Positions 7,481 through 44,370 of a stretch of 44,370 nucleotides of DNA are shown here, in pieces. The position numbers and the translations under genes are program-made. The stretch is from the IMG/VR virus record IMGVR_UViG_3300045988_005581. One strand, written 5' to 3'. Positions within the stretch are counted from its first letter, which is position 1; each line of letters opens with the position of its first letter. The notes beneath the pieces are model-generated. The model did no database searches. It was given only the letters and a program-made list of their open reading frames with translations, and was not told the DNA's origin. This stretch comes from a virus (taxonomy: Duplodnaviria > Heunggongvirae > Uroviricota > Caudoviricetes).

Positions 7481-7507
7481 TTTTCACCCCCTGCTTAAGT
7501 TAACTGA

Positions 7508-7536
7508 ATAGTACCCTATTATATTGGGGTGTGCAA
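7508..7536 (-). promoter_or_regulatory. sigma70-like promoter TTGCAC-N17-TACTAT (minus strand) with embedded dyad
   Basis: On the minus strand: TTGCAC (7531-7536), 17 bp, TACTAT (7508-7513); dyad AATAG-N4-CTATT at 7507-7520. About 25 bp upstream of the ATG at 7480. Confidence 0.5.
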
Positions 7537-7602: not shown

Positions 7603-7631
7603 TTGACTTTTCACTAAAAATATGATAAGCT
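7603..7631 (+). promoter_or_regulatory. promoter P_A: TTGACT-N17-TGnTAAGCT (extended -10)
   Basis: TTGACT 7603-7608, 17-bp spacer, TG 7623-7624, TAAGCT 7626-7631. Identical core promoter at 39890..39918. Preceded by the perfect palindrome ACTATTCGAATAGT (7590-7603). Confidence 0.6.
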
Positions 7632-7637
7632 CCACCT

Positions 7638-7838
7638 GAGCTTGTGAAGTATGAACAAGCGACCGCGGCGCGGGCAGGTAACGGAGCGGGACGTAAGTCC
7701 TGAGTGTAGTTACGCTGACGCGTTCGGAAGGGCCATACTCTATTGCTTGTGTAAAAAGTAACAGGTTTACTTAGATTACGCCGTTTCTATGTTTAAATGA
7801 TAAGGACTAGCGCCCTGCTTTAAGGCAGGGCTTTACTT
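7638..7838 (+). ncRNA. candidate short terminated transcript / structured leader (element A)
   Basis: Region between P_A and the terminator at 7812..7838; shares a 43-nt identical 5' arm (7626-7668) and a 23-nt identical 3' arm (7723-7745) with element B at 39913-40032. Not shown to be transcribed. Confidence 0.35.
7812..7838 (+). terminator. intrinsic terminator 18 nt upstream of the spanin start
   Basis: GCCCTGC (7812-7818) / GCAGGGC (7825-7831), loop TTTAAG, then TTTACTT. Confidence 0.6.
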
Positions 7839-17019: not shown

Positions 17020-17061
17020 AACATAACTCCTGATTTGAGATAACATCGTTGGTGTAAGTGA

Positions 17062-17090
17062 ATAGTACGCTATTATATCAGGGTGTGCAA
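17062..17090 (-). promoter_or_regulatory. sigma70-like promoter TTGCAC-N17-TACTAT (minus strand) with embedded dyad
   Basis: TTGCAC = 17085-17090, TACTAT = 17062-17067 on the minus strand; dyad AATAG-N4-CTATT 17061-17074; near-identical to the element at 7505-7540. Confidence 0.5.
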
Positions 17091-17197
17091 GTAGTATGTT
17101 AGAATAATTTTGCGCCTAGTGTCGCACACGAAAAGCGGGTGGTTCCCGTCTGGCGCATTTCCTTTAACCAGTAACCTCTTAACCAAAGGATTAAAGA

Positions 17198-30093: not shown

Positions 30094-30381
30094 CTAACTA
30101 TAATAGTTTGCTATTAGGTCGTCAACCTGTTTAAACGAACCAACGACAAAAACATTTGCACCGCGTTTACGCATCCGCTCATGCTCACGTAACTGGTGCG
30201 GGTCTGGCTTCGTGTTTTCGTCTTTCTTAACCTCGACAAACCAGATGATACCGCCAGGGAGAATTACCAGCAGGTCGGGAGCGCCGGAACGTCCTTCGTA
30301 GGAGAGCTTGCGAACGAGGCCGCCGAGGGCCTCGAATCGCTCTTTTGCGTATTTCTGTATGCGCCCCTCAGGCGTACTCAT
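30094..30381 (-). CDS. VRR-NUC domain nuclease
   Basis: 95 aa with PDLLVILP...VEVKK, the PD-(D/E)xK-type signature typical of VRR-NUC proteins. Confidence 0.7.
   Translation of the reverse strand: MSTPEGRIQKYAKERFEALGGLVRKLSYEGRSGAPDLLVILPGGIIWFVEVKKDENTKPDPHQLREHERMRKRGANVFVVGSFKQVDDLIANYYS
30097..30125 (-). promoter_or_regulatory. sigma70-like promoter TTGACG-N17-TATAGT (minus strand) with embedded dyad
   Basis: On the minus strand: TTGACG = 30120-30125, TATAGT = 30097-30102; dyad AATAG-N4-CTATT 30102-30115. Confidence 0.5.
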
Positions 30382-33450: not shown

Positions 33451-33505
33451 TTCTCGATTCCTCAGTTTTCAGTTTACTCCGGGAGCTGCCCGGCCAGTGA
33501 TTAGA

Positions 33506-33534
33506 ACTATAATAGCTAACTATTCAGGTGTCAA
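33506..33534 (-). promoter_or_regulatory. sigma70-like promoter TTGACA-N17-TATAGT (minus strand) with embedded dyad
   Basis: On the minus strand: TTGACA = 33529-33534, TATAGT = 33506-33511; dyad AATAG-N4-CTATT 33511-33524. Confidence 0.55.
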
Positions 33535-36283: not shown

Positions 36284-36311
36284 ATCCGCCCCTCTCGTTT
36301 GGTATGGGCTA

Positions 36312-36340
36312 ACTATAATAGCGAACTATTCACATGTCAA
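36312..36340 (-). promoter_or_regulatory. sigma70-like promoter TTGACA-N17-TATAGT (minus strand) with embedded dyad
   Basis: On the minus strand: TTGACA = 36335-36340, TATAGT = 36312-36317; dyad AATAG-N4-CTATT 36317-36330. A second imperfect dyad AATAT-N4-CTATT lies at 36361-36374. Confidence 0.55.
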
Positions 36341-36404
36341 TGGGCTTTTCTAAAATAATTAATATGGTACTATTCACATATCAACTGACTAAGGAGTAAT
36401 TGAC

Positions 36405-39889: not shown

Positions 39890-39918
39890 TTGACTTTTAC
39901 TAAGAAATGTGCTAAGCT
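39890..39918 (+). promoter_or_regulatory. promoter P_B: TTGACT-N17-TGnTAAGCT (extended -10)
   Basis: TTGACT 39890-39895, 17-bp spacer, TG 39910-39911, TAAGCT 39913-39918; same hexamers and spacing as P_A at 7603..7631. Confidence 0.6.
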
Positions 39919-39924
39919 CCACCT

Positions 39925-40160
39925 GAGCTTGTGAAGTATGAACAAGCGACCGCGGTGCGGCAGGAAACGGAGCGGTGCGTCAGCACTGAGTGTAGTGTCG
40001 CTGCCTGCATTCGGAAGGGCCATACTCTATTGTAAATCCCGTCTAAATAACCCAAGTCACTAATAATTAAAAGTTTCTATAGTTGCCGTAAGCAAGGTAG
40101 AGAGTACTTCACTCCGCTGGGGTGGGCTAAAGCCCACCCGCTGCGTTGCGTACTCTTTAA
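39925..40160 (+). ncRNA. candidate short terminated transcript / structured leader (element B)
   Basis: Paralogue of element A: identical 43-nt and 23-nt arms flanking a 54-nt core with about 12 substitutions and one indel; followed by GC hairpin GGTGGGC-TAAA-GCCCACC (40121-40138) and a U-rich stretch. Not shown to be transcribed. Confidence 0.35.
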
Positions 40161-40198: not shown

Positions 40199-40227
40199 TC
40201 GCACACCCCAACATAATAGGATACTAT
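40199..40227 (+). promoter_or_regulatory. sigma70-like promoter TCGCAC-N17-TACTAT with embedded dyad
   Basis: TCGCAC 40199-40204, TACTAT 40222-40227; dyad AATAG-N4-CTATT 40215-40228; same element as 7505-7540 in reverse orientation. Confidence 0.5.
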
Positions 40228-40261
40228 TCACTTATCGGAACGAGACAGAGGAGTGATGGTT

Positions 40262-40447
40262 ATGTTTAAGAAGGGTCAGTTGGTTAAAACAAAACGCGGC
40301 GGACAGTACGTAATAGTTACCCAGAATGAGGATGAATATAGTACCGCTGTAGACGTATGGGGTCTTGTACGAAAGAAACATGGTTACGCTTTCAGAGATA
40401 ATTTAACACTCATCGGCAACAATTTTAAATTCAAAGGGGTGAAGTGA
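40262..40447 (+). CDS. hypothetical small protein (61 aa)
   Basis: ATG 40262 with GAGGAG RBS at correct spacing (tool start 40253 is GTG); first ORF of a translationally coupled chain. Confidence 0.55.
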   Translation: MFKKGQLVKTKRGGQYVIVTQNEDEYSTAVDVWGLVRKKHGYAFRDNLTLIGNNFKFKGVK

Positions 40448-40680
40448 TGCAAATCATAATTACAGATAACACCGTTATCTACGAAGAAGATGGTGATACT
40501 CTCGAGAAAATAGGCGTAAATGTGGGTGATGTTTTCAATGTACTGGATTCCTGTGAGGATGGCTGGTGGATTAAGACAGGAAGATACACAATCCCGGTAA
40601 CTAAGGCAGAAGCGAAGGTATACACAACGGCATCTAATCATGATGCTCGTGCCGACGACTCTGAGGGAGGTTGCCGTTAA
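40447..40680 (+). CDS. hypothetical acidic protein (77 aa)
   Basis: ATG 40447 overlapping upstream stop (TGATG), RBS AGGGGTG. Confidence 0.55.
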   Translation: MQIIITDNTVIYEEDGDTLEKIGVNVGDVFNVLDSCEDGWWIKTGRYTIPVTKAEAKVYTTASNHDARADDSEGGCR

Positions 40681-40835
40681 TGAAAATTCGAATAACTGAC
40701 CGCAGGCTTATAGATTTCGGTATCTCGGTAGGTGATGTTTTTCTGGCGTTCAGCAGCAACCATTATGGTTTTATGATTGAGTACAAAGGGTCATTATTGT
40801 TCGTGTATCGGGATGAATGCGAGGTTCTGGTATGA
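40680..40835 (+). CDS. hypothetical small protein (51 aa)
   Basis: TAATG coupling upstream and ATGA coupling downstream; not in ORF track. Confidence 0.4.
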   Translation: MKIRITDRRLIDFGISVGDVFLAFSSNHYGFMIEYKGSLLFVYRDECEVLV

Positions 40836-40993
40836 GAGAAGCATTCGAACGGTGGGCCATCGTCGAGGGTCTGCCGGTTAATAAGGGTTCGAAGAAAGAG
40901 TACCTGAACGTTAAGACGCGTCTCGCGTGGCGGGCGTGGAAAGCTGGTGCGAATGTAATGGCTGGCGCATTTGAGAAGAGAGGCGATTTATGA
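40832..40993 (+). CDS. hypothetical small protein (53 aa)
   Basis: ATGA coupling at both ends; not in ORF track. Confidence 0.4.
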   Translation: MREAFERWAIVEGLPVNKGSKKEYLNVKTRLAWRAWKAGANVMAGAFEKRGDL

Positions 40994-41175
40994 GCAAGTG
41001 GATTAAGTGTAGTGAGCGGATGCCGGAGCCTTATGAATACGTTCTTGTAACTGATTGTTTTGTTGGCTGTGAGGTTATGCGTGTTAATTCAGATGGCTAC
41101 TGGGGGCCTGCAAAGAGTTTATATCACGGTGATATAACGCACTGGATGCCGTTACCTGAGCCGCCGGAGGTGTGA
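40990..41175 (+). CDS. DUF551-like protein
   Basis: C-terminal ITHWMPLPEPPE matches the DUF551 signature; paralogue of 34961..35218. Confidence 0.6.
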   Translation: MSKWIKCSERMPEPYEYVLVTDCFVGCEVMRVNSDGYWGPAKSLYHGDITHWMPLPEPPEV

Positions 41176-41333
41176 TGTTCAATAGTTTGGGATTTTACTG
41201 AGTGACTTACGCTGCTACACAGCAGCGTACAACTTTAACTTAGTGTCGTCAAAAAGCGACACTTCCCTAAAACACTGTTGGTGCTGGAATAAAGTGTCTC
41301 CGATTAGCGACACTAAGCACCAATAAAATTTAC

Positions 41334-41362
41334 TTGCACACTGGGATAGAATAGACTACTAT
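41334..41362 (+). promoter_or_regulatory. sigma70-like promoter TTGCAC-N17-TACTAT with embedded dyad
   Basis: TTGCAC 41334-41339, TACTAT 41357-41362; perfect dyad GAATAG-N4-CTATTC at 41349-41364. Confidence 0.55.
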
Positions 41363-41392
41363 TCATTTACACAGACGGGAGGAGAGACAGAG

Positions 41393-41542
41393 ATGGTTAC
41401 TTTGATGGTTATGGAATTCGAAAACAGCGCAGCAACTTACCGTGAGATGACTATGGCGCAGGCATATCACCTGGCCTCAAACGGCAACTTCTACAAGGCT
41501 CAAATCATCAATGAGTTCGGGGTAATTGACTATGAATTTTAG
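41393..41542 (+). CDS. hypothetical small protein (49 aa)
   Basis: ATG 41393 with GGGAGGAGAG RBS; not in ORF track. Confidence 0.4.
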   Translation: MVTLMVMEFENSAATYREMTMAQAYHLASNGNFYKAQIINEFGVIDYEF

Positions 41543-41810
41543 CAGCTACACCGTGACTGTTGATTTTGAGGGGCTGGAGTTGCCCCTCCCTAACAACTAC
41601 CGGTACATAACTCGCGATAGTAACGGGTTTATTCAGGGGTGGCGGAACAAACCGACAGACACCGAGTTCGGGATGTCAGGAGGAGGAGAAGAGTTGCCGA
41701 TCACGTTCGGGCACCAAAGTAGTAATGAAGAACTTAAAACTGTGATTCGTAAGTACCGCCGCCGCCGCGGCAACACGGGGCTTATCGCAATAACAGGCGC
41801 TGTTGAATAA
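41532..41810 (+). CDS. hypothetical protein (92 aa)
   Basis: ATG 41532 overlapping the preceding ORF (tool start 41526 is TTG); basic C-terminus RKYRRRRGNTG. Confidence 0.5.
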   Translation: MNFSSYTVTVDFEGLELPLPNNYRYITRDSNGFIQGWRNKPTDTEFGMSGGGEELPITFGHQSSNEELKTVIRKYRRRRGNTGLIAITGAVE

Positions 41811-41828
41811 ACGAGAGGAGAGGCAGAG

Positions 41829-41942
41829 ATGTACAGCGAATTTGATTTGTGGGACGTGGTTCTTATGTGGGCCTCCGGGGAAGATGTTGTTTGCGACTGC
41901 GACACGTTAAGTATCATATGCGAGGAGCCAGAAGATGAGTAA
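41829..41942 (+). CDS. possible 37-aa acidic peptide
   Basis: ATG 41829 with GAGAGGAGAGG RBS; stop overlaps next start. Speculative. Confidence 0.3.
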   Translation: MYSEFDLWDVVLMWASGEDVVCDCDTLSIICEEPEDE

Positions 41943-42372
41943 CAAAAACGAAGTATTCGAGTACCTGATTGACCAACTACGGCAGCAGCTAAATAACAAC
42001 CCATACAAGCAACAGTGCGAAGACCTGGCCCATGAGGTGCCGTCACTCAAGAACCAGTTACGTGATGCGTCGGCGCAGATTAAGGAGTTGCATACGGCTC
42101 TGGTCAAAGCTACGGGTGACGTGGAGGCGTACAAACTTATCCGCAATGGTGAACATGGACCTGAGCAATCTGGCTGCCGTAAAGAAGACGTGCAGGAATG
42201 CAGGCATGATTGGGTTCTGGACGAAAAAGGGGACTACTTCGTTTGCTATAAGCGCGGTAAGCAAGAAGCGGAATTGAGCGATTGCCCACACGCTAATACC
42301 GTCGGTTTGCGCAAAGGCTTTGCGCCGGGTTTTACTAAAAAGTGTCTTGATTGCGGGGCTAAACTGAAATGA
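41935..42372 (+). CDS. hypothetical protein with C-terminal zinc-ribbon-like motif (145 aa)
   Basis: Coiled-coil-like N-terminus; C-terminal CPH...C..CG. Confidence 0.55.
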   Translation: MSNKNEVFEYLIDQLRQQLNNNPYKQQCEDLAHEVPSLKNQLRDASAQIKELHTALVKATGDVEAYKLIRNGEHGPEQSGCRKEDVQECRHDWVLDEKGDYFVCYKRGKQEAELSDCPHANTVGLRKGFAPGFTKKCLDCGAKLK

Positions 42373-42572
42373 CCAGCATCTTATTTATCTGGGTATTGTC
42401 GGCGGGCCAGATGCAACTAGCGGCATCAGAAACGTTTTACTCGATGGAGGCGTGCCCGTCAGCGGCACGCGCCGCAGAGAACGCGCACTTTCTGTTTCAG
42501 GGTGACAAGCCCAACGATTCAGAGGTACGCGCTATCTGCTCACCTAAGCGACTTGGTAAACAGGAGAAATAA
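42369..42572 (+). CDS. small secreted/periplasmic protein (signal-peptide-like N-terminus)
   Basis: N-terminal hydrophobic segment ILFIWVLSAGQMQLAAS resembling a signal peptide; ATGA-coupled. Confidence 0.5.
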   Translation: MTSILFIWVLSAGQMQLAASETFYSMEACPSAARAAENAHFLFQGDKPNDSEVRAICSPKRLGKQEK

Positions 42573-42573
42573 C

Positions 42574-42756
42574 ATGGTACAGAGATATACCTACGACCAG
42601 ATATTCGGGTTTACTCCTGATGTTGAGGGCGTGTTAGTGCTTTACGAAGATTACGCGAAACTCGAAGCCGAGTTACAGAAATACAAGGACCAGTTTCCTG
42701 ATTACGTTGAGTGCGCGAACTGTGGGTCAGTTACACATGTGGAGGGGGTGGAGTGA
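42574..42756 (+). CDS. hypothetical protein (60 aa)
   Basis: ATG 42574 with AGGAG RBS (tool start 42502 upstream); C-terminal C..C pair. Confidence 0.5.
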   Translation: MVQRYTYDQIFGFTPDVEGVLVLYEDYAKLEAELQKYKDQFPDYVECANCGSVTHVEGVE

Positions 42757-43049
42757 TGTCTCTTGCAACTGACATCCTGAAACGAAGCGGCCTTGCGCCG
42801 CTGTCACCGAGAACGAACACCCGAATATACAAGCGCCGCCGTAACGCGCTGTACCCTGAGATTCAAGCCAGACGCAAAGCCATCCGCGCCTGCGGATTCC
42901 AGAGCGGGAAGGCCGTTAATCTAGGCGAGTTTAAGACGAAGGAACGCGCAGCAATCGCTAATCGGTTATTTAATTACTGGAAATCGCTGGGGTATGAGGA
43001 TATTCCGACGAAACCGCAGAGACGACAATACATCTGGCGTCATAAATAA
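42756..43049 (+). CDS. hypothetical basic protein (97 aa)
   Basis: ATG 42756 overlapping upstream stop (TGATG); Arg/Lys-rich; last gene before the lysis cassette. Confidence 0.5.
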   Translation: MSLATDILKRSGLAPLSPRTNTRIYKRRRNALYPEIQARRKAIRACGFQSGKAVNLGEFKTKERAAIANRLFNYWKSLGYEDIPTKPQRRQYIWRHK

Positions 43050-43079
43050 ACCGTTATTAAGATAATTCCTAACCGTGCT

Positions 43080-43119
43080 ATCCTCCAGTTACTGCATACT
43101 TAATACGCACCTGGAGGAT
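43080..43119 (+). promoter_or_regulatory. RNA hairpin sequestering the holin Shine-Dalgarno sequence
   Basis: Perfect 9-bp inverted repeat ATCCTCCAG (43080-43088) / CTGGAGGAT (43111-43119); the 3' arm contains the GGAGGA RBS of the holin gene, which starts with TTG at 43125. Confidence 0.4.
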
Positions 43120-43124
43120 TCATC

Positions 43125-43433
43125 TTGGATAAATTTACTGAAACAGTGACGGGGTGGCTTCTCGCTGCCGCATTAGCTGGTGGGGTAATAGGCTTACGGC
43201 AACACAAAGCCACTATTACCGGCCCTGTCGATGCTCTCTGTTTTCTCGCCACTGGCTTTGCGTGCGCCGTATTCGGTGCGCCTCTCGCCGCTCAATGGTT
43301 CGGTATCGCAGGTGAACGCGAAATAGCGGGCCTTGGATTCATCATTGCTATTCTCTGGATGCCAATTTATTCCCGTCTCTCTGGCATTGTCGCCGGAGAA
43401 TACATCGCACGTCGCGGAGGTGGTAATGAATGA
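43125..43433 (+). CDS. holin (putative)
   Basis: 102 aa with at least two hydrophobic TM-like segments and a charged C-terminus; TTG start 6 nt after GGAGGA; directly upstream of the endolysin gene. Confidence 0.6.
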   Translation: MDKFTETVTGWLLAAALAGGVIGLRQHKATITGPVDALCFLATGFACAVFGAPLAAQWFGIAGEREIAGLGFIIAILWMPIYSRLSGIVAGEYIARRGGGNE

Positions 43434-43698
43434 GTTATTCTGGTTTGGTGGTATGCTCGCAATCGGGAGCACATCGCTGTTTAACGTATACCACCCCAGC
43501 GTAGATGATGGGCTGTTCGGGCGTGTGCTTTATATTCTGACTGCTATTGTCTGCGCCGCCGGTTGTATCCACTTGTTACAGGGCAGCATGTCACCTACGC
43601 TGCCTGAGACATTAATCACATTAGTTGCGCTGCGTCAGATTCGCCAGGCGTGGCTGTCATACGGAGGACATAAGCGTGTCTCGAAACATTTCAGATAA
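43426..43698 (+). CDS. second membrane protein of the lysis cassette (holin/antiholin-like)
   Basis: ATG 43426 overlapping the holin stop; two hydrophobic segments; 3' end overlaps the endolysin start. Confidence 0.5.
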   Translation: MNELFWFGGMLAIGSTSLFNVYHPSVDDGLFGRVLYILTAIVCAAGCIHLLQGSMSPTLPETLITLVALRQIRQAWLSYGGHKRVSKHFR

Positions 43699-44164
43699 TG
43701 GGTTGCATTTCACCGCAGCATTTGAGGGATTCCGCGGAACCGCGTATCGCGCTACGCCAAATGAGAAGTACCTGACTATTGGGTACGGTCATTATGGGCC
43801 AGACGTAACGCCAGGCAAGACCATCACCCCGGGACAAGGCCTCCTGTTACTGAATCGTGATATGGCTAAGGCCGTAGCTGCGGTTGACGCAGCAGCACAC
43901 CATTCATTGACACAGGCACAGTTCGATGCAGTGTGCGACCTGGTATACAACGCAGGTGCTGGTGTGATTGCTGCTACTACCGGCACGGGTAAGGCACTGC
44001 GTTCTGGTGATATTGCAACGCTGCGGGCTAAGCTGGCGCTGTTCATCAACCAGAACGGCAAACCGATACTTGGACTGCGTCGTCGTACCGCCGGTCGTCT
44101 GGCGCTGTTCGACGGTAAACCGTGGCAGGAGGCTGAGGCTATCGGGCGCGCGGTGAAAGGTTGA
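43676..44164 (+). CDS. endolysin, lysozyme-like (GH24-type)
   Basis: GTG start 43676 with GGAGGA RBS; FEGFRGTAY...TIGYGH resembles the catalytic region of T4/lambda-type lysozymes (recalled). Confidence 0.8.
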   Translation: MSRNISDNGLHFTAAFEGFRGTAYRATPNEKYLTIGYGHYGPDVTPGKTITPGQGLLLLNRDMAKAVAAVDAAAHHSLTQAQFDAVCDLVYNAGAGVIAATTGTGKALRSGDIATLRAKLALFINQNGKPILGLRRRTAGRLALFDGKPWQEAEAIGRAVKG

Positions 44165-44230
44165 CACATAAGACTAATCCGACGATACTTAAATCACCTC
44201 CTGCTCCATCCCTCTGCTCTCCAGTTTTAT

Positions 44231-44260
44231 CCCGGCCCTGACCCAGCCGGGATTTTTTTT
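44231..44260 (+). terminator. strong intrinsic terminator after the lysis cassette
   Basis: CCCGGC (44231-44236) / GCCGGG (44246-44251), 9-nt loop, then eight consecutive T (44253-44260). Confidence 0.75.
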
Positions 44261-44370
44261 ATCTATTTTCTGTGATGACTAGTTGACTATTATCCTCGAC
44301 CCTATTATATTTACTTCATCGACAACGAGAACGGAGTAGAGAGAAATGGGCAACGTATCGACGATAGAAA
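44252..44370. repeat. Terminal duplication (copy 2), identical to 1..119
   Basis: Exact repeat of the window start, including the promoter at 32..60 and the first 25 nt of the first ORF. Confidence 0.9.

Follow-up and report, generated by a model that had tools for sequence, protein, structure and literature searches.

What does the short spacer ahead of a phage lysis cassette do, if the ribosome-binding site of the first lysis gene lies within an inverted repeat? The question is raised by the virus genome in IMG/VR record IMGVR_UViG_3300045988_005581, a stretch of 44,370 nucleotides (nt) that was analysed whole and is called the window here. A spacer of 75 nt separates a gene at 42756-43049 from a three-gene lysis cassette, and in this spacer a perfect inverted repeat covers the Shine-Dalgarno (SD) sequence of the first lysis gene, which starts with TTG and is annotated as a holin or antiholin. 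An initial annotation had suggested that a hairpin at this place and the TTG codon both restrain holin translation. We found that such a hairpin recurs, with compensatory changes in its stem, in nine lineages of enterobacterial siphophages, and that a conserved promoter-like element stands at a fixed distance from its loop in each of them. The reading that we prefer, and to which we give somewhat better than an even chance, is that RNA reading through from upstream would fold the hairpin and go untranslated, while RNA begun at a promoter nested in the element would lack the 5' arm and be translated, a design known from gene e of phage T4.

The hairpin and the start codon

The 5' arm of the repeat (43080..43088, + strand; DNA ATCCTCCAG, RNA AUCCUCCAG) holds an anti-SD-like CCUCC, and the 3' arm (43111..43119, + strand; DNA CTGGAGGAT, RNA CUGGAGGAU) contains the SD sequence GGAGGA (43114-43119), which is followed by 5 nt, TCATC, and then by the TTG at 43125. 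The two arms lie 22 nt apart on either side of a loop (43089..43110, + strand) and are 100% complementary, forming a perfect stem of 9 base pairs (bp); the initial annotation had both the coordinates and the sequence of this repeat right. It had also named RNA folding as a check, and the hairpin is indeed the predicted minimum-free-energy structure of a 91-nt segment (-21.9 kcal/mol, z -2.85). Shorter segments of 55 nt (-14.7 kcal/mol, z -2.43) and 49 nt (-14.7 kcal/mol, z -4.71) also fold, and none of 200 shuffles of the latter was equally stable. In read-through RNA, 43114-43119 pairs with 43080-43085 in both the minimum-free-energy structure and the ensemble, and the probability that SD bases 43114-43117 are unpaired is about zero. 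The folds thus bear out the earlier claim that the stem sequesters GGAGGA against an arm with CCUCC.

A 9-bp repeat is by itself unremarkable in this genome: perfect inverted repeats with arms of 9 bp or more and a loop of 3-40 nt number 10, and 7.3±3.9 are expected from dinucleotide shuffles. What exceeds chance is the position of this one on the SD, together with its conservation. No Rfam family matches the element, even when the E-value cutoff is relaxed. We consider it very likely that the spacer encodes a functional RNA hairpin over the ribosome site, because covariation is seen at the level of the whole helix across lineages, as described below, and to judge from the sequences this hairpin very probably represses translation.

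For conservation at close range, we compared 68 Kagunavirus-type loci, taken from GenBank, metagenomes and viral contigs, which have 33 distinct spacer sequences among them. Conservation is much higher between about 43050 and the start codon than on either side, and this block is kept despite protein identity down to 79% and two unrelated kinds of upstream gene. Within it, 8 of the 22 loop positions vary among these relatives and the stems are fixed: across 18 stem positions there is a single recurrent change, A43087 to G, and this retains a G·U pair. In loci of the TU03 and LSPA1 type, substitutions in the loop add four base pairs (-20.4 kcal/mol). The constancy of the stem within the genus fits selection on the helix. 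Taken alone it counts for little, since the 3' arm holds the SD itself and most of the 5' arm lies inside the promoter-like hexamer.

The TTG at 43125 is the first possible start-type codon of the 102-amino-acid (aa) reading frame 43125..43433. It is invariant in the 68 loci, it is annotated as the start in the records of Bas72, K1ind3, fBC-Eco01 and Schulenburg, and the N-terminus that it predicts, MDK, aligns with the ATG-initiated MDK of Dhillonvirus homologues. By these comparisons the TTG start proposed by the initial annotation is secure. In Kagunavirus the codon never varies, and TTG is a rare start in the genome (5 of 71 crude gene calls), but there are relatives that use ATG or GTG. 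Over the nine lineages, three start with TTG, one with GTG and five with ATG; a weak start codon is favoured, yet it is not a defining part of the module.

Counterparts in nine lineages

Homologues of the first-gene protein are encoded in Dhillonvirus (HK578 and SO-1; 47% identity), in the unclassified contig lineages L057 and L058, in Jerseyvirus (25% identity, E 2e-8) and its sister group L076/L078/L080, in KW1E_UTAR, and in the Serratia phages Otaku and Scapp. In all nine lineages, Kagunavirus included, a hairpin forms from the 30-40 nt that precede the start codon, and the only SD-like purine run lies in its 3' arm. We compared the helices lineage by lineage, each as 5' arm/3' arm together with its promoter-like element. 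Kagunavirus pairs ATCCTCCAG/CTGGAGGAT and has the element TGcTATCCT; Dhillonvirus pairs AGTCCCAGT/ACTGGGACT, with TGaTATAGT; and L057 has the same element, TGaTATAGT, with a stem CCCCAGT/ACTGGGG in which a C-G pair takes the place of a T-A pair. The stem of L058 is CCCCCGTG/CACGGGGG (element TGtTAATAT), that of Jerseyvirus is AATCTCCGAA/TTCGGAGATT (TG(t/c)TAATCT), and that of the L076 group is CTCCGTAT/ATACGGAG (TG(a/c)TAA(T/C)CT). KW1E_UTAR combines TCCCCG/CGGGGA with TTGACC-17 nt-TACTAT, Otaku has GCCTCGG/CTGAGGC with TATACT, and Scapp has GGCCCC/GGGGCT with TAATCT. The z-scores of these hairpins range from -3.2 to -7.7, with the exception of Scapp (-1.3).

The elements are placed alike as well. 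Each of the nine lineages has a -10-type hexamer, TAnnnT, whose second base A and sixth base T are the two key ones, and which extends into the 5' arm or directly adjoins it; in six lineages the TGn of an extended -10 precedes the hexamer, the n being the very base that varies within Kagunavirus and within Jerseyvirus. The predicted +1, 7 nt past the hexamer, falls no more than 2 nt from the first base of the loop in every lineage. Downstream of the stem the lineages differ. Dhillonvirus, L057, L058, Jerseyvirus and KW1E have 6-8 T directly after it and before the start codon; the L076/L078/L080 group and Otaku have no U-run, and Scapp has a separate annotated terminator upstream. On this comparison, the property common to all lineages is an SD masked in the 3' arm, not termination.

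RNAalifold found no consensus structure on a sequence-only MAFFT alignment of the nine lineages, in which the arms were out of register. A scan of bacterial genomes returned no relative, and hence no prophage copies, and a metagenome scan returned only loci of the Kagunavirus, Dhillonvirus and L057 types, with no additional lineage. Distant homologues of the protein, in Pectobacterium phage Wc4-1 and in the G+C-rich contigs L060-L062, lack the architecture, and the module is therefore not universal for the protein family.

Some loci carry two copies. In Salmonella phage TU03 (L040, 985-1200) and in LSPA1, a complete Jersey-type promoter-hairpin module with a Jersey-type holin truncated to 47 codons is followed by a Kagunavirus-type module with an intact gene. 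Salmonella phage VT223 (L063, 1495-1765) has the reverse arrangement, and its relic lacks TGn and has the outermost stem pair broken. Because these relics are reciprocal, they suggest that the module travels with the holin gene. A broader generalization can be put forward tentatively, as a possibility that we hold to be less probable than the gating itself: the unit of promoter, hairpin and SD may be a portable "lysis-cassette insulator" in at least nine enterobacterial siphophage lineages (Kagunavirus, Jerseyvirus and other Guernseyvirinae, Dhillonvirus, Scappvirus and KW1E-like phages). Such a unit would set two locks on read-through, termination and SD masking, leave a dedicated weak promoter in control, maybe under a factor that binds the GATAAWTCCTAA box, and move with the holin gene in mosaic recombination.

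The candidate promoter and its transcripts

In the window the candidate extended -10 is TGcTATCCT (43076..43084, + strand), with TG at -15/-14 and the hexamer TATCCT at -12..-7, the last 5 nt of which are the first 5 nt of the 5' arm. All functional copies of the Kagunavirus type keep TG and TATCCT unchanged, and the n of TGn is C or G. Standard sigma-70 geometry predicts +1 at A43091, 7 nt after the -10 and inside the loop. We regard TGcTATCCT as a weak but credible sigma-70 extended -10 promoter, because it has both -11A and -7T, which are essential in E. coli sigma-70 promoters, and because a TGn motif can substitute there for the -35 element. As a background we took the 132 other perfect hairpins in the genome with stems of 7 bp or more: 6.1% have a TAnnnT so placed, and 0.8% have TAnnnT plus TGn, a fraction that amounts to one hairpin, which could be this very element.

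At the -35 position, in an A/T-rich block that precedes the -10, lies the GATAATTCCTAA box (43061..43072, + strand), which is almost invariant over the 33 distinct Kagunavirus-type sequences and whose motif shows no enrichment in the rest of the window. Like boxes (GATAAATCCTAA, GATTAATCCTAAA) stand upstream of the module in Jersey-type, L076-type and Otaku loci, and the box could be a part of the promoter or a regulator site. Across Guernseyvirinae, a GATAAWTCCTAA box (43061-43072, and the upstream regions of L076, L121 and L063) is conserved ahead of the lysis module; its distance to the -10 is 6 nt in Kagunavirus and Otaku and about 30 nt in Jersey-type phages, and in genomes with an HslV-like gene upstream the stop codon of that gene falls within the box. 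Neither TGNTATCCT nor RGATAAWTCC is enriched in the window, which sets the element apart from the GAATAGT-N5-CTATTATA promoters described below: it does not belong to a family of repeated promoters.

We propose that the spacer is a three-part module, in which a weak sigma-70 extended -10 is joined to a hairpin whose 5' arm is built from the end of the promoter and its discriminator, and whose 3' arm holds the SD. The upstream genes at 40257-43049 overlap or abut each other, and a terminator scan of the window found no + strand terminator ahead of the hairpin, so read-through RNA is expected over both arms. Polymerase arriving from the upstream operon would transcribe the two arms, and the RNA would fold, hide the SD and be poorly translated; RNA begun at about A43091 would lack the 5' arm and expose GGAGGA. 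In silico, the initiation region is cheaper to open in an RNA that begins at 43091 than in the long RNA: 4.6 instead of 10.2 kcal/mol for 43112-43130, and 7.1 instead of 11.8 kcal/mol for positions -14 to +5. For the short RNAs of the other lineages the cost is 1-10 kcal/mol, compared with 11.5-26 kcal/mol for the long ones. Translation of the cassette would then be set by the dedicated weak promoter and the weak TTG codon, not by the abundance of the upstream transcript. In sister lineages with a U-run, read-through RNA would be both terminated and masked. We infer the activity and start site of the promoter, the effect on translation and any effect on lysis timing from the sequences, and the role of the promoter in lysis timing is conjecture.

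The element may gate the whole lysis cassette. By computation, opening the initiation region of the second gene takes 17.8 kcal/mol, more than for any other of the 71 gene calls (mean 7.3±2.9), and in the fold the SD and AUG of this gene (about 43410-43430) pair with about 43342-43361 inside the first gene. Because this region is buried and its start overlaps the stop of the first gene, the second gene is probably coupled translationally to the first and would follow it; the start of the endolysin gene overlaps the second gene in turn. The outer parts of the second-gene pairing (43340-43435) are conserved in relatives as coding sequence.

These results divide the claim that holin translation is restrained. 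An SD hairpin that is maintained by compensatory stem changes in nine lineages supports restraint as such. A general brake on all holin mRNA is probably not what the hairpin provides, because a -10 hexamer stands at the 5' arm in every lineage and RNA from A43091 cannot form the stem; the hairpin probably discriminates between classes of transcript instead.

Several points weigh against gating by a nested promoter. The two C residues at -9 and -8 make TATCCT a poor hexamer, and a generic promoter scan, which requires a match at -35, gave no call at the site. Literature searches turned up no start site, promoter activity or reporter data for Kagunavirus, Jerseyvirus or Dhillonvirus, and the single Kagunavirus RNA-seq paper gives no detail of start sites or promoters. 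The short RNA is predicted to re-pair its SD, more weakly, with 43160-43167, so that unmasking is partial in silico, and the first gene's initiation region, though structured, is no outlier among the 71 gene calls (rank 7, z about +1.3). Within Kagunavirus there is no full double compensatory change, and one locus (L100) has a U-to-C change that puts an A·C mismatch in the stem. Finally, the nine lineages share ancestry and are not fully independent trials. The pairing of the SD with 43160-43167 was also considered as a second mask and rejected, as it is not conserved; TU03 has CTTATG there. The published promoters and terminators for these genera are software predictions (PHIRE, ARNold), none of them at this site, and a description of the module was not found in the searchable literature on these genera.

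If there were no internal promoter, all holin mRNA would carry both arms, and the hairpin and TTG would act as a constant throttle that keeps synthesis low and sets lysis time. Much of what is described above suits this reading, including the masked SD, the invariance and rarity of TTG, the non-ATG starts in four of nine lineages and the empty promoter scan, and lambda S offers a parallel, as it has an upstream stem-loop over its SD and a holin translation rate that sets lysis time. We find it doubtful all the same, since it leaves unexplained why a TAnnnT, mostly with TGn, is kept at a fixed distance from the loop in nine of nine lineages while the rest of the spacer diverged, and five lineages start with ATG. 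The runs of T after the stem in five lineages raise a different possibility, that the element is a terminator or insulator that ends the upstream operon, with the overlap of the SD a by-product of tight packing and the lysis genes served from the nested promoter. This we think unlikely: the window has a 22-nt loop, a tail UCAUCUUG and no + strand call of the terminator scan at 43080-43130, the runs are missing in the L076/L078/L080 group and Otaku, the terminator of Scapp is separate and upstream, and the trait shared by all is the SD in the 3' arm.

The remaining explanations give the RNA fold no part. As the repeat overlaps a promoter-like element and lies just downstream of the conserved GATAATTCCTAA box, it might be a DNA operator, its arms two half-sites for a phage or host regulator of the lysis promoter. 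The arm sequences, however, are wholly different between lineages, their spacing ranges from 10 to 22 nt, the 3' arm is always on the SD, and substitutions such as A43087G, which keep a G·U pair, suit RNA pairing and not DNA symmetry, so that we consider an operator very improbable. The number of repeats expected by chance in this genome would allow the repeat to be without function, but the stem is invariant in the 68 loci while the loop varies, and equivalent hairpins of other sequence stand in eight further lineages; a chance repeat is barely credible.

The lysis cassette, other features and known systems

The window is a complete, terminally redundant genome of Kagunavirus (Guernseyvirinae): positions 1-119 are identical to 44252-44370, an identity that reflects assembly or terminal redundancy. 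Its nearest relative across the lysis region is Escherichia phage Bas72 (94.6% identity). The small gene before the spacer (phrog_9632) has no assigned function. The first lysis gene (43125..43433, + strand) encodes a protein with three hydrophobic segments, matches phrog_2359 "holin" (E 3.7e-29) and lies two genes upstream of the PF00959 lysozyme; the curated Schulenburg record labels it "antiholin/holin class II, 3 TMD, N-out C-in". "Holin" is only a family label here; the product may form holes or act as an antiholin, and either of the two small membrane proteins of the cassette may be the true holin. The second gene (43426..43698, + strand; ATG start) overlaps the stop codon of the first and encodes a small membrane protein of 90 aa (phrog_2508 "holin") that is 40% identical to its Jersey-type homologue, the product Hol41. 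Hol41 of Jersey-type phages is toxic in E. coli and has been handled experimentally. The endolysin gene (43676..44164, + strand) overlaps the end of the second gene and has a GTG start with the SD GGAGGA 7 nt upstream; its product matches the Pfam family Phage_lysozyme (PF00959, E 8e-27). A terminator-like hairpin read from the sequence closes the operon (44231..44260, + strand; CCCGGC-9 nt-GCCGGG, then A and T8), and the promoter scan called a strong, near-consensus sigma-70 promoter, TTGACT-17-TATATT, at 44283-44311. No spanin genes follow the endolysin (44165-44260), as the operon stops at the terminator; the fBC-Eco01 paper locates the spanin genes of Kagunavirus genomes elsewhere.

The GenBank record of fBC-Eco01 (L064, 768-811) places an ARNold-predicted terminator inside the first lysis gene, equivalent to about 43208-43251 of the window and not at the hairpin; imperfect inverted repeats lie near this site at 43154-43213, 43184-43220 and 43202-43263. 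Elsewhere, a repeat of about 145 nt occurs at 7603-7745 and 39890-40032 (+ strand) in copies that are 85-90% identical. Each copy begins with a promoter (TTGACT-17 nt-GATAAG or TGcTAAGCT) and continues as a structured leader, for which RNAalifold gives 32 pairs, four of them compensatory between the copies, and to which no Rfam family corresponds. One copy stands in front of the operon of structural genes and the other in front of the rightward operon, which has the lysis cassette at its end, and homologues, mostly in single copy, are found in 181 records of Escherichia and Salmonella Guernseyvirinae. The repeat may be an unannotated leader or regulatory RNA, perhaps of an antitermination type. 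A family of sigma-70-like promoters has a conserved inverted repeat, GAATAGT-N5-CTATTATA, in its spacer, at 7501-7536 and 17055-17090 on the + strand and at 30096-30125, 33505-33534, 36311-36340, 36360-36384 and 40214-40238 on the reverse strand. It fits the "phage promoter" consensus that PHIRE gave for fBC-Eco01, and, to judge from the palindrome in their spacers, these promoters may share an operator to which a phage regulator binds. Just 3' of one of these promoters and ahead of the tail genes, 17109-17173 (+ strand) matches the Rfam int-alpA RNA (RF02996) with 36.6 bits, where the gathering score is 35.8.

The time of lysis is central to the fitness of a phage, and Kagunavirus, Jerseyvirus and Dhillonvirus are widely isolated for therapy and biocontrol. 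If the gating proposed here is correct, lysis proteins would be timed or dosed by a tiny, transplantable element that packs a promoter, a translational mask and sometimes a terminator into about 50 nt, and through which lysis time could be engineered simply. It would also call for caution in annotation and in studies of expression, as the abundance of holin-gene transcripts would not predict holin synthesis.

Parts of the element resemble well-known systems. The sister elements of Dhillonvirus, Jerseyvirus, L058 and KW1E share a G+C-rich stem and a T-run with Rho-independent terminators, from which the element of the window departs in its long loop, its poor U-tract and the silence of the terminator scan. 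Lambda S, like the first gene here, has a stem-loop that overlaps the SD just upstream of a holin gene, and this structure (sdi) is combined there with a dual-start motif. There is no dual start here: the gene begins TTG GAT AAA TTT ACT, and its only other in-frame start-type codons are a GTG at codon 8, which has no SD, and an ATG at codon 79. The stem of lambda S splits initiation between two codons of one mRNA, whereas the stem described here is predicted to separate two classes of mRNA. Within the cassette, the nearest likeness is to the coat and replicase genes of MS2, where the downstream initiation region is buried and translation is coupled through it; our second gene likewise has an SD and an AUG that are predicted to pair with first-gene coding sequence, and its start overlaps the stop of the first gene.

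The closest system as a whole is gene e of T4. Its long early transcripts fold over the lysozyme ribosome site and are poorly translated, and two late promoters within the DNA of the 5' strand of the stem yield translatable RNA (PMC3014915; McPheeters et al. 1986 as reviewed there). The T4 genes soc, 49 and I-TevI behave in the same way (PMC3014915). As in gene e, folding predicts that a lysis gene has its SD buried in a hairpin on long read-through RNA, and a promoter motif, recognized here by its sequence, lies over the DNA of the 5' strand. The candidate promoter differs in kind: it is a host-type sigma-70 extended -10 and not the T4 late TATAAATA that depends on gp55 and gp33. Indeed, TATAAATA was not found in 43040-43124, so that the element would work like the T4 examples from outside the set of T4 late promoters. 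The phages, too, are unrelated siphophages without a known late sigma, and if our reading holds, the T4 lysozyme logic of 1986 arose or was retained in unrelated phages that use unmodified host polymerase. The gene that would be gated is also not an endolysin, as in T4, but a holin or antiholin gene, the first of three in a coupled cassette, and in several of the sister lineages the hairpin, unlike that of gene e, resembles an intrinsic terminator as well.

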